DNA from: Bacilli bacterium
Lineage (GTDB): Bacteria > Bacillota_I > Bacilli_A > RF39 > UBA660
Length of the DNA: 64,000 nt
Direction of reading: 5' to 3'
Assembly (NCBI GenBank): GCA_017525035.1
Contig: JAFXTH010000014.1
Coordinates: forward strand, 7,650-71,649
Positions within the stretch are counted from its first letter, which is position 1; each line of letters opens with the position of its first letter. Made by a program: the position numbers and the translations under genes. Below are positions 13,625-51,372 of the stretch, in pieces. The notes under the pieces were generated by a model. The model saw nothing but the letters and a program-made list of their open reading frames with translations, made no database searches and had not been told where the DNA came from.

Positions 13625-14561
13625 AATTTGTTTAATTATTTGTTGGTTTGGAAAATTCCCAAATTATTTTGAATTATGGGAAAAAAGTTGTGGAAATAAT
13701 CCGAATATTGATTTTTTTGTAATTACAAATAACGATTATAAATCAAAATATAGCAATATTATTGCGTATAAGTTTGACTATAAAAAGATAAATGCTCTAT
13801 TGTCAAAAAAACTAAATTTAGATATAAATATTGAAAAACCATATAAATTTTGCGATTTTAAACCTGTTTATGGAATTGTTTTCTCAGATTATATAAAAAA
13901 ATATGATTTTTGGGGTCACTGTGATATGGATCAAATATTTGGTGATATATCAACATTTTTAAATGATAGCATTTTGAATGCATACGACAGAGTAAACCAT
14001 CTAGGCCATTTTACTTTGTATAGAAATACCTATCGAATAAATAATTTATATAAAGAAAATGGAGCAAAATTCGATTATAAAAAAGTTTTTACATCAAAAG
14101 AGAATTTTGCCTTTGATGAATTTTCAGGAGTAAATTTGATTTTTAACAAAAACCATATAAAAACTTATGAAATAAATGACTTTGCAGATATTGATGTTAA
14201 ACATAAAAGATATTTGGCAAATAACTTAAAAAACTATAATAAACAATACTTTGAATTTAATAATGGTAAGTTATATCAAGTTTTTTTTGAAAGACGATGG
14301 AAAAAAAAGCCATTACTATACTTGCATTTTCAAAAAAAACATCCTGTTATTTCAATTAAAGATTATCATTCGGTAATAAGAATTGGAAAAGAAGGTATCA
14401 CAGATGATTTTAATCAGTTAGATATCAATCGAAAGGGTAATTACTTTAGTGAAAAATTTGAAACAATACGTTATTATAATTCAAAAGTATGGGATTTTAT
14501 AAAAAGTAGCAATACTAAAAAAGGAATCTGGTTTATTCAAAAATTTGGAAGGGGAAAATAG
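13614..14561 (+). CDS. putative glycosyltransferase-like protein (capsule-locus family of unknown function)
   Basis: KICLIICWFGKFPNYFELW N-terminus recurs in capsule loci. Function is not established by anything visible here. Confidence 0.4.
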   Translation: MKTKICLIICWFGKFPNYFELWEKSCGNNPNIDFFVITNNDYKSKYSNIIAYKFDYKKINALLSKKLNLDINIEKPYKFCDFKPVYGIVFSDYIKKYDFWGHCDMDQIFGDISTFLNDSILNAYDRVNHLGHFTLYRNTYRINNLYKENGAKFDYKKVFTSKENFAFDEFSGVNLIFNKNHIKTYEINDFADIDVKHKRYLANNLKNYNKQYFEFNNGKLYQVFFERRWKKKPLLYLHFQKKHPVISIKDYHSVIRIGKEGITDDFNQLDINRKGNYFSEKFETIRYYNSKVWDFIKSSNTKKGIWFIQKFGRGK

Positions 14562-14562
14562 T

Positions 14563-15363
14563 ATGAAAAAGGAATTAAATTTAGAGGAAATTAAAAAGGC
14601 ATTGATTGAAATGCTAAGATACATCGATGAGATATGTAGAAAAAATAATATTGAATATTCCGTAATAGCTGGAACAATGTTAGGTGCTGTAAGACATAAA
14701 GGATTTATACCATGGGATGATGATATCGATATAGCCTTAACAAAAGATAATTATGATAAATTGCTAGATGTATTAAAAAATCAGACAGGGCGATATCAGT
14801 TATTTACCATTGATAAAACTAAAAATTATAATTTTACTTTTGCTAAGTTGGTTGATACAAAAACAATATTAATTGATGAAAAGAGTCTTAGGCCCATTGA
14901 GAATTATGGTTTGTATGTTGATATTTTTTGCTTTGTTAATACTTCTGACAATAAACTAGCAAGAAAACATCATTTCAATGAGATAAAAAGACTTAATTCA
15001 TTGATTACTCTCACAAATCCTAAACAAAAAGGAATTTCATTAACGAGAAAAATGTTGCGAAAAACGAAACGTTTGGTTTCTTGTTTTATTAGTAGAAAGA
15101 TATTAATAAATAGATTTGCTAAAGTTATTAACAAATATTACGGCAAAAAAACAAAATATATGGTTCCCATTTTCTTTGTTGCAGGTGTCGAAAATGAAAT
15201 AATTGATACGCCAAAAGAATATGTTGATTTAACTTTTGAAAATATAAAAGTAATGTCTTTTTCAGAGTACAAAAAAATATTGTCAAAAAAATATGGTGAT
15301 TATATGCAATTGCCACCAGAAGAAGACAGAGTTAATCATAAAATGATAGCTTATTATAAATAG
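14563..15363 (+). CDS. licD: LicD-family phosphotransferase
   Basis: AGTMLGAVRHKGFIPWDDDIDIAL and C-terminal YGDYMQLPPEEDR. Confidence 0.8.
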   Translation: MKKELNLEEIKKALIEMLRYIDEICRKNNIEYSVIAGTMLGAVRHKGFIPWDDDIDIALTKDNYDKLLDVLKNQTGRYQLFTIDKTKNYNFTFAKLVDTKTILIDEKSLRPIENYGLYVDIFCFVNTSDNKLARKHHFNEIKRLNSLITLTNPKQKGISLTRKMLRKTKRLVSCFISRKILINRFAKVINKYYGKKTKYMVPIFFVAGVENEIIDTPKEYVDLTFENIKVMSFSEYKKILSKKYGDYMQLPPEEDRVNHKMIAYYK

Positions 15364-15371
15364 GATATATT

Positions 15372-16889
15372 ATGAGACAGAAAAAATCATTTTATAATAT
15401 GATTGGTGCCATGGCTTCATACTTGGTATCAATAATTGTTAGTTTTGTATCACAATTATTTATAGTAAAGGTAATGGGAATTGAATATTCTGGTATCAAT
15501 GGTTTGTTTACTAATATTATTACAATTTTATCTGTTGCAGAGTTAGGCATTGGAGAGACAATCATATTTAAGCTATATGAACCTTTGGCTAAGGGAGACT
15601 ATAAAAAAGTTAGTGCTTGGTTATGCTACTATAAAAAATGTTATATGTACATTTTCTTTATAGTTATAGTAATAGGTTTAATTATTTGCCCAATAGTACC
15701 TATTATTGTTGGTAGAGTAAATTTTTCTGAAAATATATATTTGATGTATTTGATTGTTTTATTAGATGCAGCTTTTTCATATTTATTTTCATATAAGAGA
15801 TCATTAATATTTGCTGATCAACGAAATTATATTATAAACATAATACATATTATATATATTTTCTTCATGAATTTATTTCAAATTGCTGTTTTGATTTTGA
15901 CACACAATTTTTATTTGTTTTTGTTGATAAAAGTAATATTTAGAATATTACAAAATGCTTTGATAACTATAGTTGCAAATTTAAAATATAAATATATTAA
16001 TGAAGGCACACAACAAATAGATGCTAAAGAGAAAAAAGATATTTTAAATAGGATTAAGGCAATAATGTTTCAGAAAGTTTCTTTCGTTATTAATAAGGGA
16101 ATTGATAATATCTTGATATCTATTATGATAGGAATAAAAACTGTTGGATATTATAGTAATTATTTTCTAATTGTTGGTGCTGTTACTTCTGTTGTCTATC
16201 AACTCATATCAAGTTTTTCAGCTAGCATTGGTAATTTACTTACTGAGAATAATAAAGAGAAAAGTTATAATATATATAAAAAGATTAATATGTTAAATTC
16301 ATTTATAACTATCCTATGCATTACATTGTTTTCCAATCTAATTACGCCATTCATCACTATTTGGATTGGTGAAGAATATTTGCTACATAATATGATTATT
16401 GTGTCATTTTCATTATATATATATTGTGACAGTATACGAAGATCAATTACTATATTTAAGGAAGCATCTGGAATATGCATAGAAGACCGTTACATGTATT
16501 TATATATGACGATAATAAATTTGGTAACATCAGTTATGCTTTGCTACTTCATTGGTATTGATGGTGTAGTACTCGGTACATGTATAGGATATTTATTCTT
16601 AATTCTCTTTAGTTATCCAAAATATATATTTAAACCTGTGTTTGGAAAAAAAACACTTGATTATTATAAGATGAATCTAAAATATTTTATTTGCTTAGTC
16701 ATTATTTTTTTAATTAATTGGTTGATAGTTCAAAACTTCTCAATTTCAAATAATTATTTTCAGTTGATGGTAAATGCATTTATTGCAATAACTACAACTG
16801 TTATTTTCTTCTCAATTTGTTTTTGCAAGACAGAGGAAATTAAGTTTTATAAAAATCTTATTTTGTCGAAAATGCGAAGTGATAAATAA
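15372..16889 (+). CDS. wzx: oligosaccharide flippase (Wzx / polysaccharide biosynthesis protein family), copy 1
   Basis: ~12-14 TM helices. N-terminus is paralogous to ORF 30497..32011 (EY.G.NGLF.NI.T.LS.AELGIG..IIF). Confidence 0.75.
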   Translation: MRQKKSFYNMIGAMASYLVSIIVSFVSQLFIVKVMGIEYSGINGLFTNIITILSVAELGIGETIIFKLYEPLAKGDYKKVSAWLCYYKKCYMYIFFIVIVIGLIICPIVPIIVGRVNFSENIYLMYLIVLLDAAFSYLFSYKRSLIFADQRNYIINIIHIIYIFFMNLFQIAVLILTHNFYLFLLIKVIFRILQNALITIVANLKYKYINEGTQQIDAKEKKDILNRIKAIMFQKVSFVINKGIDNILISIMIGIKTVGYYSNYFLIVGAVTSVVYQLISSFSASIGNLLTENNKEKSYNIYKKINMLNSFITILCITLFSNLITPFITIWIGEEYLLHNMIIVSFSLYIYCDSIRRSITIFKEASGICIEDRYMYLYMTIINLVTSVMLCYFIGIDGVVLGTCIGYLFLILFSYPKYIFKPVFGKKTLDYYKMNLKYFICLVIIFLINWLIVQNFSISNNYFQLMVNAFIAITTTVIFFSICFCKTEEIKFYKNLILSKMRSDK

Positions 16890-16890
16890 T

Positions 16891-17871
16891 ATGAGAAGAA
16901 GAGGTTTAATATCCGTAATAGTACCAATATATAATGTTAGTGGTTGTGTTGAAAAGTGCATAGATAGTATAATTGTGCAGACGTACAGTGACTTGGAAAT
17001 AATTCTTATTGATGATGGGTCCACTGATGGCAGTGGTGAAATATGTGATAGATACGAAATGCTTGATAGTAGAATAATCGTAGTCCATAAAGATAATGGT
17101 GGGTTATCAAGTGCTCGAAACACTGGACTTAGTGTTGCTACAGGCGATTTTATATCTTTTGTTGATAGTGATGATTATTTAGAAAATTCAATGTTAGAAG
17201 AATTAAAAAAAAATATGGAAGAATTTGATTCAGACATATCAATATGTAATTTTTATTTTGTAGATAAAATGGGGAAAAAGAAAAATTTTCGATTTAGTAA
17301 AAATAATTTTGTTTCCTTTGGGAAAGATAAATTTGTAAATATTCAAAATCAATATGATTATCTAACTGTATATTCATGGAATAAATTATACAAAAAAATG
17401 GTATTTAGTAATATTAGGTATCCAGAAGGCAGAATATATGAAGATTCTTATGCTTTGTGTGATATTTTAAATAATGCCTATAGTGTATCATATATTTTAA
17501 AACCGCTTTATAATTATGTAAAAAGAGAAGATAGCATAACTAACTCTTTTGATACAAATCATTTTGATAAGATTGGTTCGTTTAATAAGAAAATAGATTT
17601 CTTTAATGATAAGGGTTACTTTGATTTAGCAAAAGAAGAAAAAAATAGGAAAATGACCTGTTTAATAATTAATCTTTCTAAAATAAAAAGATATGGTATT
17701 AAAGATAAAGAAATAGAAAAGAAATATTATCAAGAATTAGTTAATACTAATAAAGAAGTTAAATGGAAAGGTGCCACTAAGTATAATAAGTTTTATAAAG
17801 TATTTAGAAAACCTTCAATAAATATTCTAGCATGTTTGCTTAGAGTGAGAGATTTAATAAAGAAACAATAA
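16891..17871 (+). CDS. glycosyltransferase family 2
   Basis: ISVIVPIYN, LIDDGSTDGS and FVDSDD motifs. Contains an A9 tract at 17206-17214. Confidence 0.85.
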   Translation: MRRRGLISVIVPIYNVSGCVEKCIDSIIVQTYSDLEIILIDDGSTDGSGEICDRYEMLDSRIIVVHKDNGGLSSARNTGLSVATGDFISFVDSDDYLENSMLEELKKNMEEFDSDISICNFYFVDKMGKKKNFRFSKNNFVSFGKDKFVNIQNQYDYLTVYSWNKLYKKMVFSNIRYPEGRIYEDSYALCDILNNAYSVSYILKPLYNYVKREDSITNSFDTNHFDKIGSFNKKIDFFNDKGYFDLAKEEKNRKMTCLIINLSKIKRYGIKDKEIEKKYYQELVNTNKEVKWKGATKYNKFYKVFRKPSINILACLLRVRDLIKKQ

Positions 17872-17873
17872 TA

Positions 17874-17903
17874 AGACATAATCATAAATGATTATGTCTT
17901 TTT
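17874..17903 (+). terminator. rho-independent terminator ending the first polysaccharide block
   Basis: 12-bp stem AGACATAATCAT/ATGATTATGTCT plus T-run. Confidence 0.8.
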
Positions 17904-17962
17904 GTTGAGTTATTTTATCATTAAATATATAATAATAGTTAATTATTAGTATGGAGTTATTT

Positions 17963-20536
17963 ATGCCTAGAATTAGTAGTAGAAATTTTAAAAAAAATAC
18001 AATAGATATCATAGCTAAAAGGGCAGCATATATGTGCTCTAATCCAAAATGTAATAAACAAACAGAAGGACCAGCAGACAAAAAGACAATAAGTATAGGG
18101 GAAGCTGCACATATAAATGCCGTTTCAAGAAATGGTCCAAGATATGATCCGAGTTTGCCCGATGAGTATATTTCCAGTCAAGAAAATGGATTGTGGTTAT
18201 GTAGAGAATGTCATAAAAAGATAGATAACAAAAATGATAGAAGATATACTGTTGAACTTTTAAAGAGTTGGAAAGAACAGAGAGAAACAACAGCAGAAAG
18301 AAATCTTGGGATACCTAGGCCAACAATAGAACCATCAAATTATTCATATAATGAAATAGTAGATAATGAAAATATTAAGAGCAATGACGATAGTATTATA
18401 TTAACTAACAATTATAAACAAATAACAAAAGAATTGCTTAGTAATCTTAATGGTGTTGATGGAGAGTTAGCTAATTATATTTTTAATGACAAGACAAAAG
18501 AATATGAATCTGATTTAAACAATAGCTTAAGTTCTATTATTAAATGGTTTGTAGGGCAAAGAGATTTTCCAGTTAAAGATATTAACACTGTATATGATTA
18601 TTTTAATGCTGAAAAAATAAAAGTAAATAAGAGGGTTCTGAGTAGTAGAAGAAATGCTTTAATTAATTATTTCACTGGAAATATTGACAGTTCAAAAAAT
18701 ATTTATAGTAGATTGTATAACATAATCAATAAAAAAGATTATAAAGTTGATGACTGGATTTATGATGATTATCTTGTGGATGGTAGATTAATTATTGATA
18801 TTTTTGGAAAGGTTAATAAAAAGTACTATGACAATAAGTATGCAATTCAATTATCTATGCAGAAACATTACGTATTTTATCCTTACATAGATAAAATAGA
18901 AAAAGACATTTTTAATTCATCATTTAATAATACAATAAAATACAAGTATAAAAGAAGAAACACTTACTATTATGGAATGGGATTGGAAGGAATTTTCAAT
19001 GATATTCAAAGAGCAGTATTTATAACTATTATATATGGATCAATAGCTAATCTATTAAATATTAGAAATATGATGTCAAAAGTATTAATGATTTATGCTG
19101 ATAGATTAGATGATGATGAACTTTATGAATGGGCATTATTATTCTATGTTATGTGTGGTAATTATGATAACTACAAGTTAATATTAGAAAAAGTATCTTG
19201 TAAATATAGAGGACTAGAATCAGAAAGTTTTATTAGTCGTGTATTAAATTTGCGTAGTTCAATTACAAAATATACTGAAAATAATTTCGATATATTTATA
19301 TATGATACCTTTGGAAGATATCTTGATGATAAAAAATATGATATCTATGAAAGAAGAATATTGAAATTATTAAACAGCAATTATGTACCAGTTGTTAACA
19401 GTACAATTAAAAGTTTATATAGTAACATTCCAAGGTTTAAAAGAAAAGACAAACTTCTTGAATTCTTAAATAAGTATGTAAAAAAAGGTGGTTATAGGCA
19501 AGTACAAGAAGTTATAAAATATCTTAATTATAATGAACTGGGCGGCATTAATAAAAACTTACTAAAGGAAATAATCAAAAAGATAATAGACTCAAAAGAT
19601 TATTTAATAATAACTAATTTATTAGTAGAAATAAAGAAAATTGAAAAAATAAATGATTATGATGAAATTCTATTAAAAGAAAATACAGATGATAATCTCA
19701 TATATGAATTAAACAAAGATAATAAATTTACATCGAGAAAATTACAATTAATAGTTGATGAGTTATCAAAAAGGATTGAAGATAATATAATAACCGGTGC
19801 TGTGACAAGTTATTCGACAAATTATAAAATTTTGCCTAATTTTTTTGATAGAAGTAATAGTTCAAAAGATAGAATAATAACTGAAAATATTTTCCCACTA
19901 TGTGAAAAATGTTTATCTTCAAATAAAGTAGAATATATTGAGAAAATAAAATTATTAAGGACATTGATGTATATATTTTATTTTGATGAAAGATATAGTG
20001 ATAAAATAAAAGATATTGTATCTAAAACAGTTAAGGATAGTAATACTGGTATGTTTGATGAAGAAATAAGTGATGTATTTATAGAAGCCTATTTAATATT
20101 CTTTGACTATGTTTTTGGTGAAATTGATTTTATTGAGATGATAAGAAAATATATAGATATCTCTAATAATGAATATGTGTTTGAAGAAATAGGAATTGTA
20201 CTGGAGCATGTTTTAAAAAAAGAAAGTATAAATATTGAATCGAAAGAAATGTTAATATTATTTATACAACAAAAGATTAATTCGAATATATCAAGTGATA
20301 GAATTACTGCAATTAAACTTACAAGATACCTATATAATACTGAATTATTCGATGAGATATACGATGTTTTATATAGTAGATCAATTGACTCAAGTTACAA
20401 TGAAATGAGAACAATAATGTCAGTTGTAAACGAGTTGGATAAGAGAGACAAAAAAATTAAGGCAATTTGTTATAACTTAATTAATAATAGAAATTATAAT
20501 ATCAAATATATGGGGAAAAAATATTTAAAACAATAA
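17963..20536 (+). CDS. HNH (His-Me finger) nuclease domain fused to a ~750-aa helical region of unknown function
   Basis: CSNPKC...EAAHINAVSRNGPRYD...NGLWLCRECHKKIDN (about 18020-18235). The rest has no recognisable motif. ATG 17963 sits behind GGAG. Confidence 0.6.
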   Translation: MPRISSRNFKKNTIDIIAKRAAYMCSNPKCNKQTEGPADKKTISIGEAAHINAVSRNGPRYDPSLPDEYISSQENGLWLCRECHKKIDNKNDRRYTVELLKSWKEQRETTAERNLGIPRPTIEPSNYSYNEIVDNENIKSNDDSIILTNNYKQITKELLSNLNGVDGELANYIFNDKTKEYESDLNNSLSSIIKWFVGQRDFPVKDINTVYDYFNAEKIKVNKRVLSSRRNALINYFTGNIDSSKNIYSRLYNIINKKDYKVDDWIYDDYLVDGRLIIDIFGKVNKKYYDNKYAIQLSMQKHYVFYPYIDKIEKDIFNSSFNNTIKYKYKRRNTYYYGMGLEGIFNDIQRAVFITIIYGSIANLLNIRNMMSKVLMIYADRLDDDELYEWALLFYVMCGNYDNYKLILEKVSCKYRGLESESFISRVLNLRSSITKYTENNFDIFIYDTFGRYLDDKKYDIYERRILKLLNSNYVPVVNSTIKSLYSNIPRFKRKDKLLEFLNKYVKKGGYRQVQEVIKYLNYNELGGINKNLLKEIIKKIIDSKDYLIITNLLVEIKKIEKINDYDEILLKENTDDNLIYELNKDNKFTSRKLQLIVDELSKRIEDNIITGAVTSYSTNYKILPNFFDRSNSSKDRIITENIFPLCEKCLSSNKVEYIEKIKLLRTLMYIFYFDERYSDKIKDIVSKTVKDSNTGMFDEEISDVFIEAYLIFFDYVFGEIDFIEMIRKYIDISNNEYVFEEIGIVLEHVLKKESINIESKEMLILFIQQKINSNISSDRITAIKLTRYLYNTELFDEIYDVLYSRSIDSSYNEMRTIMSVVNELDKRDKKIKAICYNLINNRNYNIKYMGKKYLKQ

Positions 20537-20548
20537 TTTGATAAAGAA

Positions 20549-20576
20549 GATATACCATTGGTATATTCTTTTTTTG
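20549..20576 (+). terminator. rho-independent terminator
   Basis: AGATATACC-att-GGTATATT hairpin plus T-run. Confidence 0.55.
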
Positions 20577-20598
20577 TTATCTATATGTAAACTTTTAT

Positions 20599-20627
20599 TT
20601 GAATTATATATTGTTCTTTAATATAAT
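20599..20627 (+). promoter_or_regulatory. near-consensus sigma-A promoter
   Basis: TTGAAT (20599-20604), 17-nt spacer, TATAAT (20622-20627). Confidence 0.6.
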
Positions 20628-20781
20628 AGAGGCGAGTAGTCTTATACAAGGATTTTTCAATGTTAATTGTGCTCTTAGACTAAGTTGGTTGTTTAATCAC
20701 AAGTTGGAAGGTTCTGTACAGGGAAGAGATGGTGCAATACCATCAATCTTTTATTTATGCCAACTAGAAGGAGTGATTTTT

Positions 20782-20859
20782 ATGAATTTTAATTTATCTA
20801 TAAGTATAGTAGTTAATGTTTTATTTGCTCTTTTCTCTTTTAGAAAATTCCTTGTATAA
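20782..20859 (+). CDS. 25-aa hydrophobic peptide (type I toxin-like or leader peptide)
   Basis: GAAGGAG RBS 8 nt upstream of the ATG. Peptide is MNFNLSISIVVNVLFALFSFRKFLV. The last codons and stop pair with the predicted mRNA 5' end. Confidence 0.4.
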   Translation: MNFNLSISIVVNVLFALFSFRKFLV

Positions 20860-20891
20860 GAGTATTCGTTGCATAGAAGGAGGATAAAATT

Positions 20892-21575
20892 ATGGATGAT
20901 GATAAATATAAAATTCAAAGAATATATTATCTGTTAGAAGGTATGAGGGATAGTATTGAACCACGTGACGACATAAATGTTGATAATAACACAGTAAAAA
21001 CATATAACATTTTATTGAATGATTTGATGAAGTGTACCGGTGAACCGTTTGAAGCATATAAGTTTGATGACAAAGACACACCATATGGTAGATATTTTTT
21101 ATATAGAATAAATCCAGTTATTAATTATTTAAAGCATATGCATATTGAAACATCTGAGTATCAAATAGAAAAAATAGGGGCATTGTACAAATCTCTTGAA
21201 GATAAAGAACTAAGAAAAAGATGTGAAGACATTCTTTTAGGAGATGCTGCCTTTGATAGAGCAATTAATCAAGCTACACAAGTTTTAGAAGATAGAATAA
21301 AGAAAAAAGCCAATTTATCTAGAACTCCTTTAACAGGGTTAAGCTTAGTTTCAAGAGCTATACACAAGGATTTAAATGAAACAATTATTAAATTAAGTGA
21401 TGAGCCAAATGTCCAAGAGGGTTATTCTAATTTATTTAAAGGAGTAATAGGTATTTACAGGAATCCTACGCATCATTCATTAACTTATAATTGTAGTCGG
21501 GAATATGCTTTAAAAACGTGTGCATTTATAGATGATTTATTAAAAGAAATAGATAAGGGGCAAGTGGTAAAATAA
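20892..21575 (+). CDS. TIGR02391 (Hypoth_Ymh)-type protein with HEPN-like R-N-x3-H motif
   Basis: C-terminal LFKGVIGIYRNPTHHSL...REYALKTCAFIDDLL. RNPTHH lies at 21459-21476. RBS GAAGGAGG. Confidence 0.55.
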   Translation: MDDDKYKIQRIYYLLEGMRDSIEPRDDINVDNNTVKTYNILLNDLMKCTGEPFEAYKFDDKDTPYGRYFLYRINPVINYLKHMHIETSEYQIEKIGALYKSLEDKELRKRCEDILLGDAAFDRAINQATQVLEDRIKKKANLSRTPLTGLSLVSRAIHKDLNETIIKLSDEPNVQEGYSNLFKGVIGIYRNPTHHSLTYNCSREYALKTCAFIDDLLKEIDKGQVVK

Positions 21576-21629
21576 TTATACTGTTAACTAAAATAGGCAT
21601 AATCATTTATAATTGTGCTTTTTCTATAT

Positions 21630-21652
21630 AAAAAAGAGCAGATTAACTGCTC
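21630..21652 (-). terminator. rho-independent terminator on the minus strand
   Basis: Minus strand reads GAGCAG-ttaat-CTGCTC followed by T6. Confidence 0.65.
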
Positions 21653-21771
21653 ATGAAAGGATGCTGTACTGTCCTATGTAAAAGTTCCCTATAAACGTGG
21701 ATTTGAGCAGGACAGGTATCTTTGAAAAACAAGATACATAGGGAACTCAAAACCGCCTTCAAAACTTTCAT
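21643..21771 (-). CDS. 42-aa peptide with hydrophobic N-terminus (candidate type I toxin) or structured small RNA
   Basis: Minus strand reads TATAAT...AAAGGAG-10 nt-ATG. Peptide is MKVLKAVLSSLCILFFKDTCPAQIHVYRELLHRTVQHPFMSS. The coding region is packed with inverted repeats and followed by a terminator. Confidence 0.35.
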   Translation of the reverse strand: MKVLKAVLSSLCILFFKDTCPAQIHVYRELLHRTVQHPFMSS

Positions 21772-21982
21772 TTTTATATTTCTCCTTTCATTAGTATTAT
21801 ATAATATTAAGTTACAAAACAAATAATAAAGCATATTAATAAATTACATTCTCAATATTTGCGACTAATTCTCAGTTTAAGAGATTGAAGTTCTTATGAC
21901 ACATCTAGTACTATTGAGTTGTAATTGATGTCTTGCATCTTATTTTTATAATAATATGCATGGTGTTGAAGTAGGAGGATTA

Positions 21983-24115
21983 ATGAAGTTAGAATTTTTA
22001 AAATTGAAAAAAGAAAATATTTTTTGTGATGATTTTAACCGTCTTAGTAGAAATAACATTATTGATTTTGATGAATCAAAAATAAATATTTTATATGCAC
22101 CAAATGGTGTCGGTAAAAGTACATTTTGCAAAACTTTAAAAGGTGATGGTGAGTTTGAGCTTAATTATAATGGGATATCTTATGACAATACTAATTGCAA
22201 TATCTTTCATATTATAAGTGACCAAAACAGCAGAAACATCATAGAAGGTGATGCTAAAGATTTTTTACTTGGTGATAATATTGTAAAAGAATTTGATTTA
22301 AGAGAGTGGCTTAATCAAAAGTTTTTAGATATATTTAATACACTAAAAGGTAGTTATAAAGATAAGTTAAACATAGCAAAAAAAACTGATAAGAAAATAG
22401 AATGGCTTGATAAAGATAGTGTGGAATTAGTTCAAAGAATAACAAAGAATGGCTCAAAACCAGCTGACATTGATTTAGATGATTATTTAAGTTATATATC
22501 TAGCTTAGAACAGGTGGAAATTGGTGAGTATGAAGAGGAAAAGTTAGAGTATATTAAAAATGATTCAAATACGGAATTGATAAACGAATTATTAAATATA
22601 AGGGATATAACAGGAAACGAAAAATTCTCAAAAATAGAACAATGCGATGATGCTGTGCTAATACTTAATAAGTATCATGATTTAACCAATTGTATTGTAT
22701 GTGATAACGAAAATATAAATGCTGATGACCTAATATCTTCGAAAAAGCAGCAAAAAGATGTTATAATTAATGGGCTTGATATTAGGGATAAAAACATATT
22801 AGATAGAATAATCAATAGAATTTCAGATGATGATGTGTTTGACATTAAGCACACTCTTACTAATGCTATAGTTACGGGAAGTATACAAGAAGTAAATGAC
22901 TTGTTGGCTACTATTAATTACTATAAAACGGTTTTTTCAAAAATATCAAACAATATATTAAAAAACTCAATTCCTATTGAATTTATTGAAAAATATAATG
23001 AATATAAGATTATGTTGAGCAATGAATTGAATTTTTCAGATGAAGATCTTCTTTTTATTGAAAAGTTTATAGCAGATAATATTGGTAAAGAAATAAAATT
23101 GTGCCGTAAAGATAAGAAAATAGCAATAACGCTTAATTCTGAAGATTTTTTAGGAGTTGAACGTCAGAACTTAAAATTAAGTTCTGGAGAACAAAACTTT
23201 ATTTCTTTGACCTTTGAATTGTTGAAAGCTAGAAATATGCAACAAGAAATAGTAGTAATAGATGATCCAATTTCAAGTTTTGATTCTATTTTTAAAAATA
23301 AGTTAGTTTTTTCAATAATAAAATTTCTTGAAAATAAAAACGTAATAATTTTGACACATAATATTGATTTAGTAAGACTTATTGAATATCAAAAAAAGGG
23401 TAATTATGGACTCTATATATTTAATAATTATGAAGGACAAGAGAATGGATTTATTAATATTTCAAATAATGAAAAAAATATTATGATATCTATTCCTGAA
23501 TTACTTAATTTTATTCGAGGAGATCAAATTGATAATGATATTAAAGATGAAAGAATGTTTCTGTACTCATTAATCCCATTTATGCGTGGTTATGCAAATT
23601 TTATTGGCGATTGTGGTAGTAAAAACTTATTAAATAATCTTATGCATGGATATAAAACAGAAATAGTTGATTTAACAGCAATATATAATTCATTTTTTTC
23701 AAAAAAAAATAATAATAACTATAGTATTAGTGTTAGTGATTTGCTTTCAACTGATATTAATACTATTCCAGTAATAATTGATAATGAAAAGTACCCACTT
23801 TTAAATAGAGTCTTATCAAATAATTTTGTTTATTTGTTTTTAAGGCTTAAAACTGAAAAAACTTTAGTTGATAAATATGTTATAAATACCAATCATAAGG
23901 ATCAGTTGGCAAGTATAATTTATGAAGCCTTTAAAACTGACACACCAGATAATATTAAGATGAAAGTCTTCTTTTTTTCGAAGAAGACATTGCTTAATGA
24001 GTTCAATCATTTTGATGGTAATATGAACATATTCCAACCTGCAATTGATATTTCTGAAAAAATATTAAATAAAGAAAAAAGTGAAATAATTGATATGTTG
24101 AATTCTTTATTATAA
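21983..24115 (+). CDS. AAA_13-type ABC ATPase, RloC/PrrC-like (candidate anticodon nuclease)
   Basis: Walker A APNGVGKST, a long insert containing CIVC (22691-22702), signature LSSGEQ, Walker B VVIDDPISSFD, and a ~230-aa C-terminal domain. ATG 21983 sits behind AGGAGG. Confidence 0.55.
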   Translation: MKLEFLKLKKENIFCDDFNRLSRNNIIDFDESKINILYAPNGVGKSTFCKTLKGDGEFELNYNGISYDNTNCNIFHIISDQNSRNIIEGDAKDFLLGDNIVKEFDLREWLNQKFLDIFNTLKGSYKDKLNIAKKTDKKIEWLDKDSVELVQRITKNGSKPADIDLDDYLSYISSLEQVEIGEYEEEKLEYIKNDSNTELINELLNIRDITGNEKFSKIEQCDDAVLILNKYHDLTNCIVCDNENINADDLISSKKQQKDVIINGLDIRDKNILDRIINRISDDDVFDIKHTLTNAIVTGSIQEVNDLLATINYYKTVFSKISNNILKNSIPIEFIEKYNEYKIMLSNELNFSDEDLLFIEKFIADNIGKEIKLCRKDKKIAITLNSEDFLGVERQNLKLSSGEQNFISLTFELLKARNMQQEIVVIDDPISSFDSIFKNKLVFSIIKFLENKNVIILTHNIDLVRLIEYQKKGNYGLYIFNNYEGQENGFINISNNEKNIMISIPELLNFIRGDQIDNDIKDERMFLYSLIPFMRGYANFIGDCGSKNLLNNLMHGYKTEIVDLTAIYNSFFSKKNNNNYSISVSDLLSTDINTIPVIIDNEKYPLLNRVLSNNFVYLFLRLKTEKTLVDKYVINTNHKDQLASIIYEAFKTDTPDNIKMKVFFFSKKTLLNEFNHFDGNMNIFQPAIDISEKILNKEKSEIIDMLNSLL

Positions 24116-24179
24116 AGTATATGTTCACTTGTGTATACATTCGTTTTTCTATGTTATTATCTTTTTGAGGTGACCAATT

Positions 24180-24788
24180 ATGACCAATATATTATTACAT
24201 TTCAATATAAGAGTTGTCTATAATCAGTTTAAAGATAATGAGACTGATACTAATTATGATATTAAAGAGTTTATTGATTCTAATATGACATTAAAAGAAT
24301 CTATTGATTATATTTTTAACTTATATAATATTAAATTATCTAAAGAACAAAAGAAACATAAGTATACTAATTTACCTGAATATATATTTGGATGTTTTAG
24401 TTCATCATCTTTTGATTATAATGAAGATGAAGTTATGAACACTAAGATAGGTGTGCTTGAAGAATATTTTAAAATATCTGAAAGAATACTTTCTATACAT
24501 TATGTAGATGGTATTGGTGGTACTCTTGGAGAAAGTGAAGGAATAATATATTTTTTTCATACAAGAGAAAAAGATCTTCATAATACTCCACATATTCATT
24601 GCTGGTATTCTGGTGAAGAGTTTAGAGTGAATCTTAAAACTTTAAAGATAATAGATGATTCTTTTAAATCAAGAAAAAAGACTAAACTAGCTATGGAAGT
24701 AGTTACTAGAAATAAAGATGAATTTATTAGAATATGGAACTTAGCAGTAGTGAAAGGTCTTCCCTTTGAGTTTAAGGGAGAAATATAA
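24180..24788 (+). CDS. DUF4160-like domain protein with a ~110-aa N-terminal extension
   Basis: IYFFHTREKDLHNTPHIHCWYSGEEFRVNL resembles the DUF4160 core (..F....H.PPHFHA.Y.g.e..). Confidence 0.4.
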   Translation: MTNILLHFNIRVVYNQFKDNETDTNYDIKEFIDSNMTLKESIDYIFNLYNIKLSKEQKKHKYTNLPEYIFGCFSSSSFDYNEDEVMNTKIGVLEEYFKISERILSIHYVDGIGGTLGESEGIIYFFHTREKDLHNTPHIHCWYSGEEFRVNLKTLKIIDDSFKSRKKTKLAMEVVTRNKDEFIRIWNLAVVKGLPFEFKGEI

Positions 24789-24837
24789 GAAAGTTATATT
24801 TTAGTAAAATTTAATATATTTAACTTTGAATATTTAG

Positions 24838-24877
24838 AAGTACTAAGAAGAATTAATATTTTTCTTAGTACTTTTTT
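24838..24877 (+). terminator. rho-independent terminator
   Basis: 12-bp stem AAGTACTAAGAA/TTCTTAGTACTT plus T-run. Confidence 0.75.
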
Positions 24878-24953
24878 ATTGAATTTAATAAATTGCTAGT
24901 TTGTAATACTTTTGATATTGAATTATTATTAGTTCCTAAGAAGGAGAAGTAAG

Positions 24954-25751
24954 ATGAATAACATAGAAATTAATAATAGTTTATTTGAAGATATTAAACA
25001 TGTTGATGAAGAAGGTAACGAATATTGGAATGCACGAGAACTAAAAAATGTGCTTGGATATGTTCAGTGGAGAAGGTTCAACGACGTAATTAATAAATCT
25101 AAAGATGCATGTAAAAATAGTAATTACAATGTGGTAAACCATTTTGCCGACATTGGCAAAATGGTTAAGACTGGAAATTCAATAAGAAGAATTTTGGATT
25201 ATAAATTAACTCGATATGCTTGCTATTTAATTGCACAAAATGGAGATAGTAGAAAACAAGTAATTGCTCTTGCTCAAACATATTTTGCAATACAAACTAG
25301 AAAACAAGAACTTATTGAAAAAGAATATGAGTTGTTAACAGAAGATGAAAAAAGACTATATCAGAGAAATTTAACAAAGAAAGGGAATTATTCTTTAAAT
25401 CAAGTTGCTAAAAATGTTGGTGTTAAAAACTTTGATAAATTTCATAATGCTGGATATAAAGGTTTGTATAATGGTGAAACGGCAAATGATATTGCTAAGC
25501 GTAAAGGATTAAGATATAGAGAAGATATTTTAGATAATATGGGAAGTGTAGAATTAGCTGCTAATTTATTTAGAATAACACAAACGGAAGAAACTCTTAA
25601 GAATAAAAAAATAAAAGGTGAGAACAATGCTAGTAAAACTCATAATAAAGTTGGTAAAATAGTTAGAAAAGCTATTAAAGATGCTGGTGGAACAATGCCA
25701 GAAGACCTGACTACGCCTGATAAGAGTTTGAAAGAATTAGGGAAAAAATAA
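24954..25751 (+). CDS. dinD: DNA damage-inducible protein D (DinD family)
   Basis: WNARELKNVLGY..W..F..VI.K....C, KLTRYACYLIAQNGDSRKQVIALAQTYFAIQTR. Confidence 0.7.
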   Translation: MNNIEINNSLFEDIKHVDEEGNEYWNARELKNVLGYVQWRRFNDVINKSKDACKNSNYNVVNHFADIGKMVKTGNSIRRILDYKLTRYACYLIAQNGDSRKQVIALAQTYFAIQTRKQELIEKEYELLTEDEKRLYQRNLTKKGNYSLNQVAKNVGVKNFDKFHNAGYKGLYNGETANDIAKRKGLRYREDILDNMGSVELAANLFRITQTEETLKNKKIKGENNASKTHNKVGKIVRKAIKDAGGTMPEDLTTPDKSLKELGKK

Positions 25752-25777
25752 TATACGTTAGAATAGTATATGTTTTT

Positions 25778-26251
25778 ATGTTCATAATAATCATGGTGAT
25801 TATTATGGAACCTTATTTAAATAATCTTGCTTCTTCTCAAACATTCTTGACTATTATCTCTGGTACTTTTGTATATATCTTAAGTCAGTTCTTTATGGAG
25901 TTTATAATTGTACCTAGGAAAGATTATAAAAGAGTAAAAGAAAAGATTATATATCATGTTAAGATGTATTCACTGTATTATTTAAATCCTTATGATTTAA
26001 ATAATACAAATAATAATACTAGAGATAAAGCTGAATACGATAATGCTAGTCGTGAGATTAGACAAGTAGGGGCAGAACTATCTAGTTATATTGGTCTAAT
26101 GAGTAAGATTAGATTTATTAGAAGAAAAAGATTATTAAAAGTACAAGATGCTTTAATAGAATTATCTAGAGGGTTTATTTATAGGAAGAATAATCCTATT
26201 AAAGATAATAAAAGAGTTGTTAAGATTATTGAAGATAATTTATACAAATAA
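25778..26251 (+). CDS. small membrane-anchored hypothetical protein
   Basis: One N-terminal TM helix (LTIISGTFVYILSQFFMEFIIV). Start is ambiguous (25778/25793/25805). Confidence 0.45.
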   Translation: MFIIIMVIIMEPYLNNLASSQTFLTIISGTFVYILSQFFMEFIIVPRKDYKRVKEKIIYHVKMYSLYYLNPYDLNNTNNNTRDKAEYDNASREIRQVGAELSSYIGLMSKIRFIRRKRLLKVQDALIELSRGFIYRKNNPIKDNKRVVKIIEDNLYK

Positions 26252-26273
26252 AGATGTCATGTTGACATCTTTT
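26252..26273 (+). terminator. rho-independent terminator
   Basis: AGATGTCA-tgt-TGACATCT hairpin plus T-run. Confidence 0.6.
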
Positions 26274-26317
26274 ATTCATGTTTGTATTATAGTAAGTTAT
26301 CTTGGAGTGATTGTTAT

Positions 26318-26800
26318 ATGAAAGAATATATTATTGATTATAGTAAAAGAAATATAGAATTAGAAGAAGAGAAGAGTAAAAGTATTATTAAGGGTTGCAG
26401 TACTTTAGTACTTCTTAATGCTTTATTACTTATTCCTTTAGTAATTGCATTTTTAGAATTATTAAAGATTGATGATATTAGACTTTTTACTATCATATTT
26501 GGATTTACTATTATTGGTTTATTAATAGCAAGTATTATACTAGCTCTTCTTGGTTTAATACTTAATAAATCTTGTTTTACTAGATCTGGTAAATCATTAC
26601 TTAACTCATTATCTAAGAAAGACACAAGTAAGAAAGAATACTTTTTAGATCAAACAATTAGTGATTTAGATTCAATTTATTTAAGAAAACATATAAATAA
26701 TAGTGTTAATAAAACATTCTTATTTATATCATTTTCTCTTAATTGTGCTGCTTACTTAGTTCTAATTGGGGCGGTTATTACTATTATGATTTTTATATAG
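26318..26800 (+). CDS. small multi-TM hypothetical protein
   Basis: Two central TM helices and one C-terminal TM helix. ATG 26318 sits behind GGAGTGA. Confidence 0.5.
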   Translation: MKEYIIDYSKRNIELEEEKSKSIIKGCSTLVLLNALLLIPLVIAFLELLKIDDIRLFTIIFGFTIIGLLIASIILALLGLILNKSCFTRSGKSLLNSLSKKDTSKKEYFLDQTISDLDSIYLRKHINNSVNKTFLFISFSLNCAAYLVLIGAVITIMIFI

Positions 26801-26821
26801 AGGTAAGAACCTCTTTTTTTA
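26799..26821 (+). terminator. rho-independent terminator ending the island
   Basis: AGAGGT-aaga-ACCTCT hairpin plus T7. Confidence 0.7.
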
Positions 26822-40397: not shown

Positions 40398-40532
40398 ATA
40401 GATTATCAAGAACGAGGGAGAGAATTAGCTCTATGATCTCGTACCAACCTGCATAAGCAAGGTGGTAAAGCTAATAACGATAATAATATATTGTTTATAG
40501 TAACTCCTTGATAATCTAGAAGGAGTTTTTTT
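40398..40532 (+). promoter_or_regulatory. SAM-I (S-box) riboswitch with terminator/sequestrator hairpin
   Basis: TTATCAAGA..GAGGGAGAGAATTAGCTCTATGA..CCAACC...GGTGGTAAAGCTAA..GATAA fits the S-box core. P1 is TTATC/GATAA. Terminator is AACTCCTT...AAGGAGTT plus T7 (40502-40532). Its 5' arm CTTGATAA can pair with the P1 5' strand as an antiterminator. Confidence 0.7.
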
Positions 40533-43185: not shown

Positions 43186-45666
43186 ATGAGTGATCAAGAA
43201 TCAATAATTGGAGAAAATGGGGTAGATGATACTCCAAAAACATCATATCCATTTCAAGAGGTAATTCAAGGTAAGATAGAAGTATTAGAATCAAATGTTA
43301 ATAGCAATACAGCACAATATAATGTAGCGTTAGATGGGCTAAGTGAAGTAAATGCTAAATTAAATAGCGATAATATAGGGGCAGAAGAGAGAAATGCCTT
43401 AATGCAGCAAAAGACTGAATACACTAATACGATAAATAAGTATGAGGAAAGTAGAGATGTCTTAGCGGAAATGGAAAGAAAACTTTCTAGTGGAAAAGAG
43501 TTTACTAGAGAAGATGCAGCTAGAATAGAAAATGCTTCATCTACTTCTGTAGTAAAAGGTGCTCAAGAAGCTGCACCAACTAATCCATTTCAAGAGACAA
43601 TGCAAGGTAAAGTAGAAGTACTAAAAGCTAATGTTGAAAGTTCCGCAGCGCAATACCATGAAGCAGTAGGTAGAATGGGAGAAGTGGACGCCAAATTAAA
43701 TAGTGGTGATATAACTCCAAAAGAAAAAGATGCCTTAATGCAGCAAAAAATAGAATACACTAATACGATAAATAATTATGAAGCAAGTAGAGATGTCTTA
43801 GCGGAAATGGAAGGAAAACTTTCTAGCGGGAAAGAGTTTACTAGAGCAGATGCAGATAAGATCGAAGATGCTACAATGGCTCCAGCAATAAGGAGTACTA
43901 AAGAAACTTCAAATGCTGAATCTCAAACTAGATTTAATAAAGATGACTTTATTGTAGTGCATGATGAAGATGGAACAATTGTAATAGATAAACAAAAAAC
44001 AGATCCATTTCAACAAGCAATGCAAGGTAAAGTAGAAGTACTAAAAGCTAATGTTGAAAGTTCAATGTCACAATATGAAGAAGCTAAGCAAGGAATTGAA
44101 AATATAGATGCACAATTAGGTAATAGTGCTTTATCTCAAGATGAAAAAGATGCCTTAATGCAGCAAAAGATAGAGTACACTAATGCTATTAAAAATTATG
44201 AGTCAAGTAGAGATGTTTTAGCAGAAATGGAAGGAAAACTTTCTAGCGGGAAAGAGTTTACTAGAGCAGATGCAGATAAGATCGAAGATGCTACAATGGC
44301 TCCAGCAATAAGGAATACTAAAGAAACTTCAAATGCTGAATCTCAAACTAGATTTAATAAAGATGATTTTATTGTAGTGCATGATGAAGATGGAACAATT
44401 GTAATAGATAAACAAAAAACAGATCCATTTCAACAAGCAATGCAAGGAAGATTAGATGTATTGAAAGCTAACGTTGAAAGTTCAATGGCACAATATGAAG
44501 AAGCTAAGCAAGGAATTGAAAATATAGATGCACAATTAGGTAATAGTGCTTTATCTCAAGATGAAAAAGATGAATTATTATTACAAAAGATAAAATATGA
44601 AAATGCTGTTAAAAACTATGAGAATAATGCATCTATTTTATCAGAGATGGAGAACAAATTATTAAATGGAACAAAGTTTACAGACTCTGATTTAAATAAA
44701 ATTGAGGGTGCTACATCTACATCGGGTATATCTAGTTTAAAAGACTATACTGTTACTGATAATTCTGTATCCAACGATGTTACTTTAGGTAAGATAGAAG
44801 TATTGAAAGCAAACATTGAAGCTGGTACAGATGCTTACTATAGAGCAAAAAGTGAAATTGATGATATTAATTCTCGTCTTGGTAATCCAAAATTGACAGA
44901 AGAGGAAAGAGAAAATTTATTATTACAAAAAATACGTTATCAAAATACTATTGATAATTATGATCATAATATGCATATGCTAGAGTCTCTTGAGGAAAGA
45001 ATAGCAAAAGAAGGCTTAGAAGAGTCTTCTGAAGAAATTAATTTAATGATAAATGACTTTAGCCCTGTATCAACGTCAATCTTTAATGATTCTAACTTTG
45101 ATCTTAATTCTTATTTAGATGACTATTATGAATTGTTATTAGATTCAGGTTATGATAAGAAGAGTTATGAATTATTAAGCAGTATGAATTCTGCTATAAG
45201 CTTATTTGATAGTATATTTGATGGTAAAATGGGTTCTATGTTAGGTAGTGCATTTAATGCAAATAAACTTGTATATGAATATGTATTAGAAAGTGAAAAA
45301 GATATTTATACTTATGTAATGAACTCTTTGACTCCTGCAATGAGTGAAGTTCAAAAACTTGCAATTATTTTGGAAGGTAGAGCAGAATTACAAAAAAGGT
45401 TAGAAAAAGCAGAAACTGATCTTGCTAATCATTTAGTTTCTAAACCAGCACGTGTTTATGAAACATATACGGGAAATGATGGAAAAGAACACAAAAGAAA
45501 AACAGGAGCATTCAAAACTTGGGAAAATGATAGAACAAACATTGAAGAAGAAATAGATGAAATTAATAGACAATTAGAAGATATTAATGAAGAGGCAAGA
45601 ATAATTCTTCTTAAAATAGAAGAAAGTGACAGCCAGGTTATAGATTTTGGCACTTATGCATTTTAA
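43186..45666 (+). CDS. 826-aa tandem-repeat helical protein, putative T7SS substrate/effector
   Basis: Five PFQ..MQGK.EVLKANVE.. repeats followed by a unique ~215-aa C-terminal domain. Lies immediately downstream of two WXG-like genes. Confidence 0.55.
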   Translation: MSDQESIIGENGVDDTPKTSYPFQEVIQGKIEVLESNVNSNTAQYNVALDGLSEVNAKLNSDNIGAEERNALMQQKTEYTNTINKYEESRDVLAEMERKLSSGKEFTREDAARIENASSTSVVKGAQEAAPTNPFQETMQGKVEVLKANVESSAAQYHEAVGRMGEVDAKLNSGDITPKEKDALMQQKIEYTNTINNYEASRDVLAEMEGKLSSGKEFTRADADKIEDATMAPAIRSTKETSNAESQTRFNKDDFIVVHDEDGTIVIDKQKTDPFQQAMQGKVEVLKANVESSMSQYEEAKQGIENIDAQLGNSALSQDEKDALMQQKIEYTNAIKNYESSRDVLAEMEGKLSSGKEFTRADADKIEDATMAPAIRNTKETSNAESQTRFNKDDFIVVHDEDGTIVIDKQKTDPFQQAMQGRLDVLKANVESSMAQYEEAKQGIENIDAQLGNSALSQDEKDELLLQKIKYENAVKNYENNASILSEMENKLLNGTKFTDSDLNKIEGATSTSGISSLKDYTVTDNSVSNDVTLGKIEVLKANIEAGTDAYYRAKSEIDDINSRLGNPKLTEEERENLLLQKIRYQNTIDNYDHNMHMLESLEERIAKEGLEESSEEINLMINDFSPVSTSIFNDSNFDLNSYLDDYYELLLDSGYDKKSYELLSSMNSAISLFDSIFDGKMGSMLGSAFNANKLVYEYVLESEKDIYTYVMNSLTPAMSEVQKLAIILEGRAELQKRLEKAETDLANHLVSKPARVYETYTGNDGKEHKRKTGAFKTWENDRTNIEEEIDEINRQLEDINEEARIILLKIEESDSQVIDFGTYAF
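43249..45020 (+). repeat. five in-frame tandem coding repeats (336, 420, 420, 357 and ~240 nt)
   Basis: Units start at 43249, 43585, 44005, 44425 and 44782. Segments 43801-44027 and 44221-44447 differ at only 3 positions by eye. Confidence 0.9.
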
Positions 45667-45670
45667 TAAA

Positions 45671-45699
45671 AAAAATAGTGGATAAACCACTATTTTTTA
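45671..45699. terminator. bidirectional terminator between convergent genes
   Basis: AAAAAATAGTGG-ataaa-CCACTATTTTTT. Confidence 0.8.
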
Positions 45700-51164: not shown

Positions 51165-51372
51165 TTATATTGAATGCAAATGACGAAGACGTAATTAAAG
51201 AAAAACTTTAAGAGAGCAAGTGTTTGGTGAGAACTTGTAAGTAATCTTTAATTAAGATCACTTCTGATGCTTTTTATGGATAAGATAAAAACGGTAACGC
51301 GTTATAGTTTTAAGAAGTAATTAAGGTGGTACCACGTGGAGTAATTCGCGTCCTTTTGGGGCCACCTTTTTT
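51165..51372 (+). promoter_or_regulatory. T-box riboswitch leader (probable Ile specifier AUC)
   Basis: AGAGA bulge and GGTGAGA distal loop in Stem I. AUC at 51244-51246 in the specifier region. T-box sequence AAGGTGGTACCACG at 51323-51336. Terminator AAGGTGG...CCACCTT plus T-run. Confidence 0.8.

Follow-up and report, generated by a model that had tools for sequence, protein, structure and literature searches.

The locus described here raises the question of why genes with no visible part in sugar metabolism should interrupt a polysaccharide locus, and whether such genes act together or alone. It lies in a stretch of 64,000 nucleotides from a Bacilli bacterium (GenBank assembly GCA_017525035.1, contig JAFXTH010000014.1), referred to throughout as the window. 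To the left of the block, the sugar genes end at a glycosyltransferase family 2 (GT2) gene (16879-17871; PF00535), directly followed at its 3′ end by a perfect 12-bp hairpin and T-run (17873-17900). To the right, they restart at the second LicD gene of the window (start 26877; PF04991). Seven protein genes, termed A, C, D, E, F (dinD), G and H, lie in between. All are on the + strand, which carries nearly all genes from 467 to 45666. The region 17881-24825 is read here, with a probability of roughly two in three, as an allele of a defence slot driven by recombination, with a cargo of four autonomous abortive-infection-type modules (A, C, D and E).

The genes of the island are real and not chance open reading frames (ORFs), as all have homologues and frames of 861 and 710 aa are sustained in DNA of ~25% GC. 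Profile scans with Pfam, PADLOC and NCBIfam found no sugar-related domain in genes A to F. The GC content is ~25% over the window as a whole, with no compositional break at the block. There is no tRNA in the window, no integrase or transposase domain among the eight island ORFs scanned and no convincing direct repeat at the flanks. An origin as a mobile element was rejected on these grounds.

A previous reading of the letters alone (the sequence-only reading) had proposed that the sugar genes halt at 17871 and resume at 26877, that the accessory block between them has defence- or conflict-type content, and that integrase, transposase, tRNA and flanking direct repeats are lacking. The domain, tRNA and repeat searches bear this out, and its calls of RloC/PrrC-like, TIGR02391/HEPN, DUF4160, DinD and helical-repeat nuclease proteins were each reproduced. 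Its suggestion to look for variable occupancy in close relatives led to three cargo sets at one position. The limits which it gave to the block (17874-26821) were too wide, since dinD, G and H (24826-26800) are kept with the downstream sugar genes at 95-98% identity.

A variable slot in a polysaccharide locus

Contigs with the same locus were found by exact-protein look-ups, and sister strains through close homologues (>90% identity) of DinD and G. Besides contigs from ruminant-gut metagenomes, a single NCBI assembly (GCA_017545125.1) has the locus. The sequences recovered represent three distinct alleles: that of the window, also carried by contigs L001-L004 and L171; that of L005 and L008; and that of L172. 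Common to all three are a right flank at 95-98% identity and a left anchor of ~180 nt. The slot sits between the strain-variable and the conserved halves of a capsule/exopolysaccharide (EPS) locus.

In blastn comparisons, homology of L005 and L008 to the window starts at 24826, which is 38 nt 3′ of the gene E stop codon, and continues at 95-97% identity beyond 35.7 kb. For L172, right-side homology starts at 24664. As sister-strain homology covers 24826 onward and not the whole block, the variable unit ends before dinD. On these alignments it is a unit of ~7 kb (17881-24825) containing genes A, C, D and E, with dinD, G and H outside.

The cassette of L005 and L008 consists of a ~270-nt non-coding stretch, an NDT-like effector, a reverse transcriptase and then four more genes, one of them with a SocA_Panacea domain. 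It is recognised as a type II-A retron because the effector and the reverse transcriptase match the PADLOC models NDT_II-A and RT_II-A (155 bits). The structured-looking non-coding stretch which precedes the retron is probably the msr/msd RNA. The cassette is shared by the two contigs at 96% identity, and the sugar genes to its left differ. In L172, the cargo is a PtuA/AriA-like AAA_15/21 ATPase and a 630-aa ATP-binding cassette (ABC) ATPase, the latter unrelated to D. With the same position, conserved flanks and alternative defence cargo, the locus is, on sequence grounds, a fit to a chromosomal defence hotspot. An extra SDH_protease-family gene (PF01972) and a 58-aa ORF were also seen in L008 (L008:2731-3913), between the left-anchor remnant and the retron; these may be further cargo.

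Remnants at the junctions indicate how the alleles might have been exchanged. The GT2 gene of the left flank is strain-variable except for its last ~170 nt. Window positions 17701-17880, which cover this 3′ end and the start of the hairpin, are 91% identical to L172:5639-5819, and L008 keeps the left anchor as a 71-aa remnant ORF (2495-2651), 93.7% identical to the L172 copy. Just 3′ of gene A, positions 20541-20634 are 79% identical to L172:5806-5898. The terminator-promoter module which this segment holds directly follows the left anchor in L172, and gene A (17881-20540) therefore appears as an extra inserted module relative to that strain. The last 125 nt of gene E persist in L172 (L172:9534-9658) beside the unrelated ATPase cassette and are, to judge from the alignment, the footprint of a past recombination event. 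From the junction remnants, together with the lack of recombinase genes, we infer mosaic exchange by homologous recombination between short anchors. In the proposed mechanism, of which the junctions show a part, cargo would be swapped with the GT2 3′ end as the left anchor and the terminator and dinD as the right anchor. The cassettes would be delimited by terminator-promoter modules, and no dedicated recombinase would be involved.

Table 1. Coordinates of the slot, its cargo and its flanks in the window, and of the retron in two sister contigs
Feature	Position	Strand	Description	Basis
Left anchor	17701-17900	+	last ~170 nt of GT2 gene and bidirectional terminator hairpin (17873-17900)	homology to L172 and L008
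Gene A	17951-20536	+	HNH domain, disordered linker (122-155), HEAT/ARM-like alpha-solenoid (156-861)	profiles and AlphaFold model
Terminator-promoter module	20549-20627	+	terminator hairpin (20549-20575) and promoter-like TTGAAT-17-TATAAT (20599-20627)	shared with L172
Leader of gene C	20633-20868	+	structured leader upstream of C, holds 25-aa ORF	folding
Gene C	20892-21575	+	Ymh/TIGR02391 HEPN protein with ~100-aa uncharacterised N-terminal domain; predicted RNase toxin	
Small convergent ORF	21643-21771	-	42-aa ORF between C and D	ribosome-binding site, -10 box, terminator (21652-21636)
Gene D	21983-24115	+	RloC-like ABC ATPase (AAA_13), 710 aa	profiles, motifs, model
Gene E	24180-24788	+	~120-aa N-terminal domain and C-terminal DUF4160 (DhiT-like)	PF13711
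Right anchor start	24826-24872	+	includes conserved terminator hairpin (~24839-24872) ahead of dinD	blastn against L005 and L008
dinD (gene F)	24954-25751	+	PADLOC candidate PDC-S13	NF008573 337.6 bits (cut-off 242); PDC-S13 335 bits
Gene G	25805-26251	+	148 aa, one hydrophobic segment	conserved flank
Gene H	26318-26800	+	160 aa, three hydrophobic segments	conserved flank
Type II-A retron region	L005:4198-6401; L008:4205-6408			NDT-like effector and reverse transcriptase

Four predicted defence modules

The biochemical activities and anti-phage roles given here for the cargo are predictions. Each of the four modules would carry its own regulation. The largest is gene A, the frame of which gives 861 aa, or 857 aa from the start chosen by the gene caller (17963). 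Its HNH domain (residues ~10-120) matches PADLOC PDC-M68A at 7e-25 and CBASS-type HNH effectors at 1e-21, and scores 20.1 bits against Pfam HNH_2, slightly below the cut-off of 21. For the solenoid of the AlphaFold model (pLDDT 84.5, pTM 0.74), the best Foldseek matches are the PP2A A subunit, AP2 adaptins, SF3b, condensin Ycg1 and importins, with the low TM-scores that flexible repeats lead one to expect. An NTPase domain was not found in gene A by any search. The PADLOC SAVED-HNH and ‘Effector’ models cover only residues ~10-200. Assignment of gene A as a CBASS or STAND (Avs-like) effector was rejected, as it has neither the SAVED sensor nor the NTPase and its remainder is modelled as an alpha-solenoid.

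The family to which A belongs is rare. A word-indexed search returned three full-length relatives beyond its own cluster and two HNH-only matches, and an exhaustive search by profile gave 54 clusters with E <= 1e-30 from 1.84 billion representatives, a part of which match in the HNH domain only. No member was found in IMG/VR. Across 39 members of the family the solenoid is conserved and the N-terminus is variable. In A and its closest relatives the N-terminus is HNH. In the member P0039 it is SMEK_N, also matching the N-terminal part of a PADLOC model named for an Argonaute-associated restriction endonuclease class, and in P0195 there is a weak DUF4062 match, below the family cut-off. Some members have an N-terminus of only 30-55 residues. 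No PADLOC model matched the eight members without an HNH or SMEK domain. The solenoid holds a cluster of invariant or near-invariant polar positions (R233, D273, D277, R279, N280, D314, R315, G363, S364, T366 and R372), which suggests a binding pocket. We infer a sensor-plus-effector protein, in which the solenoid would serve as sensor or scaffold and release the N-terminal HNH DNase upon a phage cue.

The nuclease domains that alternate on short-Argonaute partner proteins include HNH and SMEK (PMC10810196). Similar to such swappable-nuclease immune proteins, the A family exchanges an N-terminal HNH or SMEK_N on a large conserved C-terminal module. The HNH of gene A is most similar to that of CBASS effectors and nSTAND/NACHT proteins. 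Among these comparators, HNH is found on STAND/NACHT NTPases and in SAVED-HNH CBASS effectors, and HNH, SMEK or DUF4365 on the short-Argonaute partners (PMC10810196). Gene A differs from them in having no NTPase, SAVED, APAZ or partner gene, its conserved part being instead a HEAT-like solenoid of ~700 aa. The A family looks new as a variant of the effector-sensor immune proteins. With its rarity, its exchangeable effector and a solenoid core that no PADLOC model matches, gene A is the most useful lead.

Gene D (719 aa if the longer ORF from 21956 is taken) matches AAA_13 at 53 bits (cut-off 36) and is filed by PADLOC under the candidate class PDC-S06. Several motifs are invariant in 55 homologues: G42xGK45, LSxGEQ (399-404), DD427-428 and H459 of the ATPase; a CxxC pair, C237xxC240; and R621-x3-E625-x50-H676, in which asparagine, not serine, stands before the histidine. 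In the structural model (pLDDT 87.8), a helical insert of ~270 aa (98-367) interrupts the ATPase head. The CxxC lies inside this insert, in a loop between helices 213-230 and 247-264, and an all-alpha C-terminal domain follows the head. Foldseek matches were to SMC/Rad50 heads, AriA and retron-associated ATPase chains. PrrC is embedded in a type I restriction-modification (hsd) locus and has no coiled-coil insert. Gene D was rejected as a PrrC, being flanked by C and E rather than by hsd genes and having the ~270-aa helical insert.

RloC is defined by the motifs of an ABC ATPase, a CX2C zinc hook within a coiled-coil insert and an Arg-X3-Glu-X36-52-His triad near the C-terminus, and the RloC of Geobacillus kaustophilus is a wobble-nucleotide-excising anticodon nuclease (PMC2610378). 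By its predicted sequence features, gene D has the ATPase motifs, the invariant CxxC in an insert between Walker A and signature, and an R-x3-E-x50-H spacing within the x36-52 range; like RloC, it is not linked to restriction-modification genes. Unlike the one long coiled coil of RloC, the insert of D appears in the model as several shorter helices in a bundle. The likeness of the ~710-aa protein is judged by the published criteria. Gene D resembles RloC on paper and is at most a candidate for the RloC clade proper.

The C-terminal domain of D (495-710) had no Pfam match and no similarity to the Ymh HEPN family by hhalign. No HEPN structure was among the 50 Foldseek matches listed for D, all of which were ABC/SMC-type ATPases. 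In the mechanism proposed, a Rad50-like ABC head with a zinc-hook coiled coil would gate a C-terminal R-E-H ribonuclease, expected to cut tRNA anticodon loops. Relatives of D, 36-58% identical over their full length, were found in at least 401 species genomes of bacteria and archaea, including Bacilli, Veillonella, Vibrio, Klebsiella, Chloroflexi and Methanosarcinaceae. A tblastn search of plasmids gave no match, and IMG/VR gave only three full-length matches on viral contigs. The family is widespread and has a clean RloC-like motif set, yet is annotated merely as ‘AAA family ATPase’.

Gene C scores 60.3 bits against Hypoth_Ymh (PF09509; cut-off 25) and 44.2 bits against TIGR02391 (cut-off 39.45), and carries the HEPN R-x4-H motif as RNPTHH. 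The Ymh family is a HEPN family of predicted RNase toxins, either solo or fused (PMC3710099). The scores above both the Pfam and the NCBIfam cut-offs, the motif and the defence context are features which C has in common with Ymh/TIGR02391 HEPN proteins (PMC3710099), and it would act as an RNase of this type. The isolated N-terminal domain had no Pfam match and a PDB sequence search with C gave nothing useful. Relatives of C are ~230 aa long and 45-68% identical. They lie in assorted defence islands, with SLFN-type helicases, NUDIX, DUF6414, MazG-like, AAA_15/21, reverse transcriptase, Cas6 or ToxN neighbours, and no constant partner was found in the islands examined. Unlike subunit B of PD-Lambda-3, gene C is solo, and its match to PD-Lambda-3_B is weak (E = 3.6e-5) and covers the HEPN part alone. 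A two-gene PD-Lambda-3 system was rejected, as no island protein matched the PD-Lambda-3_A model.

Upstream of C is a leader of ~235 nt with a 26-nt long-range stem (20633-20658 with 20843-20868, 88% complementary) and a folding energy of -72.6 kcal/mol (z = -3.5 against shuffles). It contains a hydrophobic ORF of 25 aa (20782-20859) with a GGAG ribosome-binding site 5′ of it. By analogy, this layout recalls type I toxin mRNAs. No Rfam family matched the leader or the gap between C and D, and blastn and nhmmer searches did not find the leader conserved upstream of C homologues. The sequence-only reading had placed two tiny hydrophobic ORFs on either side of C. Both exist, although the 42-aa ORF on the minus strand is not strongly hydrophobic. 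Neither has a family match in Pfam, and from their sequences both are candidate genes at most.

Gene E matches DUF4160 (PF13711) at 50.7 bits, above the Pfam cut-off, and the NCBIfam DhiT model at 36 bits against a cut-off of 100. DUF4160 is the toxin domain of the DhiT/DhiA (DUF4160/DUF2442) type II pair (PMC8198452) and an effector domain in Menshen NsnC proteins (PMC12065111). The above-threshold Pfam match is what E has in common with DhiT. Unlike the DhiT/DhiA pair (PMC8198452), E lacks a neighbouring DUF2442 gene, for which the 165-nt gap 3′ of E is too short; unlike single-domain DhiT, its DUF4160 is fused to an N-terminal extension of ~120 aa. The pair was rejected as an identity for E on these two differences and on the score below the NCBIfam cut-off. 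The isolated N-terminal domain had no Pfam match, and a PDB sequence search with E gave nothing useful. In the proposed mechanism, the toxin domain would be held in check by its own N-terminal extension.

Proposed independent modules and the alternatives

The strongest alternative to the preferred reading, itself improbable, is that the toxin-domain genes are addiction or stabilisation modules, or decayed leftovers of mobile elements, which hitch-hike in a region where the capsule locus is hot for recombination and contribute no meaningful phage defence. HEPN and DUF4160 are classical toxin domains, the 25-aa hydrophobic ORF in its folded mRNA resembles type I toxins, gene remnants occur at the junctions and dinD is decaying in sister strains, all of which would suit such an origin. 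Decay is not what is seen in A (861 aa) and D (710 aa), however, where frames and catalytic motifs are intact in AT-rich DNA. The other alleles carry recognised defence systems (the type II-A retron and the PtuA/AriA-like ATPase), there are no mobile-element genes and no cognate antitoxins were identified.

A less probable alternative, at about one chance in ten, is a single multi-gene system of A, C, D and possibly E, in which D senses a cue and activates A and/or C in trans. In each contig with the window’s allele, these genes stand side by side in one orientation. The fold of D is like that of ABC ATPases in multi-protein defence complexes (AriA, LmuB and retron-associated chains), and HEAT-repeat proteins pair with SMC ATPases in condensin and cohesin, the model of A resembling Ycg1. 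The combination of a HEPN domain with an ABC ATPase is also the logic of PrrC/RloC.

The neighbourhoods of relatives elsewhere argue against a joint system. For D, 78 loci from species genomes were retrieved and searched with the island proteins by tblastn at E <= 1e-3. None of the other island proteins (A, C, E, F, G and H) had a homologue near the D relative at any of the 78 loci. Clustering of all neighbouring ORFs gave no family in more than nine of the 78 loci, and hence no conserved neighbour; the minority families were Dcm methylases, integrases and recombinases, with Dcm and HaeIII in at most nine. Relatives of A were found at five other distinct loci, each with different neighbours: an HTH (helix-turn-helix) protein and another dinD (74% identical) 3′ of the A relative in L009, a HATPase_c_4/HTH protein upstream in L011, AbiEii upstream in L012 and, in L210, a 175-aa ORF as the sole other called gene. 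In L009-L011, tblastn detected no homologue of C, D or E near the A relatives, and the called genes of L012 and L210 include none. No D homologue was found at the C-family loci elsewhere. Between A and D in the window stand C, the convergent small ORF, terminators and promoter-like sites. Gene A also looks separately inserted relative to L172, and D has a conserved C-terminal effector-like domain of its own.

Contig L009 comes from a more distant organism. Its A-family protein (38% identical) lies upstream of dinD at a distance of a few kb (L009:1376-7287), and the HTH protein and a DUF1016_N-like ORF stand between the two. This may be a slot of the kind described here, or chance.

Two specific forms of coupling were considered. 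In Lamassu and ABC-three-component (ABC-3C) systems, an LmuB-type SMC-like ATPase is co-operonic with an LmuA effector (and LmuC), and the genes are conserved as a set. ABC-3C lies within the Lamassu family (PMC10586767). Gene D matches the LmuB model over residues 16-59 (the P-loop) only, at 21.8 bits, and A has no LmuA match. A Lamassu/ABC-3C coupling of A and D was rejected on this weak match and because their relatives do not co-occur at the loci searched. The sequence-only reading had hypothesised an ABC-three-component logic, in which the ABC ATPase acts with the helical-repeat nuclease; the same two results, together with the terminators and promoters between the genes, speak against it. 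A split PrrC composed of C and D was rejected as well, as tblastn found no C homologue near the 78 D relatives and C relatives have other neighbours. With no conserved partners and a P-loop-only match to LmuB, the genes are best read as independent modules.

The weakest alternative, a role of the block in polysaccharide synthesis or regulation (for example phase-variable capsule control or membrane accessory factors), is very improbable. In its favour, the block sits within a sugar locus and shares its strand, the products of G and H are membrane proteins and a 74%-identical match to H lies among the sugar genes of L172. Against it, A to F lack sugar-related domains, the block is set apart by strong terminators, and retron or ATPase cassettes replace the cargo in strains with the same downstream sugar genes.

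Several points weigh against the reading of the region as a defence slot with four autonomous modules. The distinct alleles number only three and come, without exception, from metagenome contigs of a single lineage, and no empty slot was found among the recovered sister contigs. The defence role comes from family membership, PADLOC candidate models (PDC-S06, PDC-S13 and PDC-M68A) and genomic context, and the HEPN assignment of the C-terminal domain of D is drawn solely from its motif pattern. The toxin domains of C and E have no identified antitoxin or regulator. The sample of the A family consists of the five other loci on short contigs, where a more distant partner is possible. Finally, the gap between D and E is 64 nt with no terminator called on the + strand, and the two genes may be co-transcribed.

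Fixed neighbours, known hotspots and the wider window

Genes dinD, G and H are fixed neighbours of the slot and not cargo. The product of gene F is a full-length match to the DinD equivalog NF008573, and dinD is present in all recovered alleles. It is broken in L172 by a TGG-to-TGA stop (L172:9824-10621) and in L171 by an indel of ~55 nt (L171:761-817). Being disrupted in sister strains, dinD is dispensable in this lineage. Among 80 metagenome loci with dinD relatives (<= 76% identity), none had G, H or LicD neighbours, and no further alleles were obtained. G and H are predicted lineage-specific small membrane proteins with no family match in profile scans. A 74%-identical DNA match to H occurs at L172:14299-14694, after an epimerase gene and within a called gene of 168 aa (14189-14695). 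As this match is among the sugar genes of L172 and G remains beside dinD there, H appears to travel with the sugar genes.

Defence hotspots of this kind are already known. Three reports describe core-genome hotspots in Pseudomonas aeruginosa, E. coli and Acinetobacter, with variable cargo between conserved anchors (PMC10250203, PMC10121019, PMC11723918). Similar to these, the slot has a fixed chromosomal position, strain-specific defence cargo, no mobility gene and several unrelated systems side by side. It differs from them in lying within a capsule/EPS biosynthesis locus, at the border of its variable and conserved parts, in having very short anchors (~180 nt on the left) and in its host, an uncultured low-GC Bacillota of the ruminant gut. 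A limited literature search on such a placement listed no paper with the phrase ‘capsule locus’.

Capsule loci rank among the main targets of the diversifying selection that phages impose. With a slot placed where the variable part of such a locus ends, a single recombination event would be able to alter both receptor and intracellular immunity. A broader proposal, which is tentative and has the odds against it, joins two claims: that a single recombination event at the slot, set at the margin of the part of the capsule locus which determines serotype, can change the phage receptor and the intracellular defence repertoire, and that A founds an undescribed single-protein sensor class. In the latter, the pocket of the ~700-aa solenoid would recognise a phage component directly and, with no NTPase, unleash an exchangeable HNH, SMEK or weakly DUF4062-like effector. 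The slot is also a site for discovery, as whatever this lineage carries from the GT2-tail anchor to dinD would be a defence candidate.

Some features of the window outside the block were also recorded. Two large ORFs at 43186-47493, of 826 aa (+) and 598 aa (-), had no Pfam match and are adjoined by an MMPL-family gene on the minus strand (47493-49562). A SAM riboswitch lies at 40400-40486, a T-box leader at 51171-51358 ahead of an isoleucyl-type tRNA synthetase gene, and a gene for an EssC-like FHA/FtsK protein at 57494-62116. Together, these three are typical of Bacillota.

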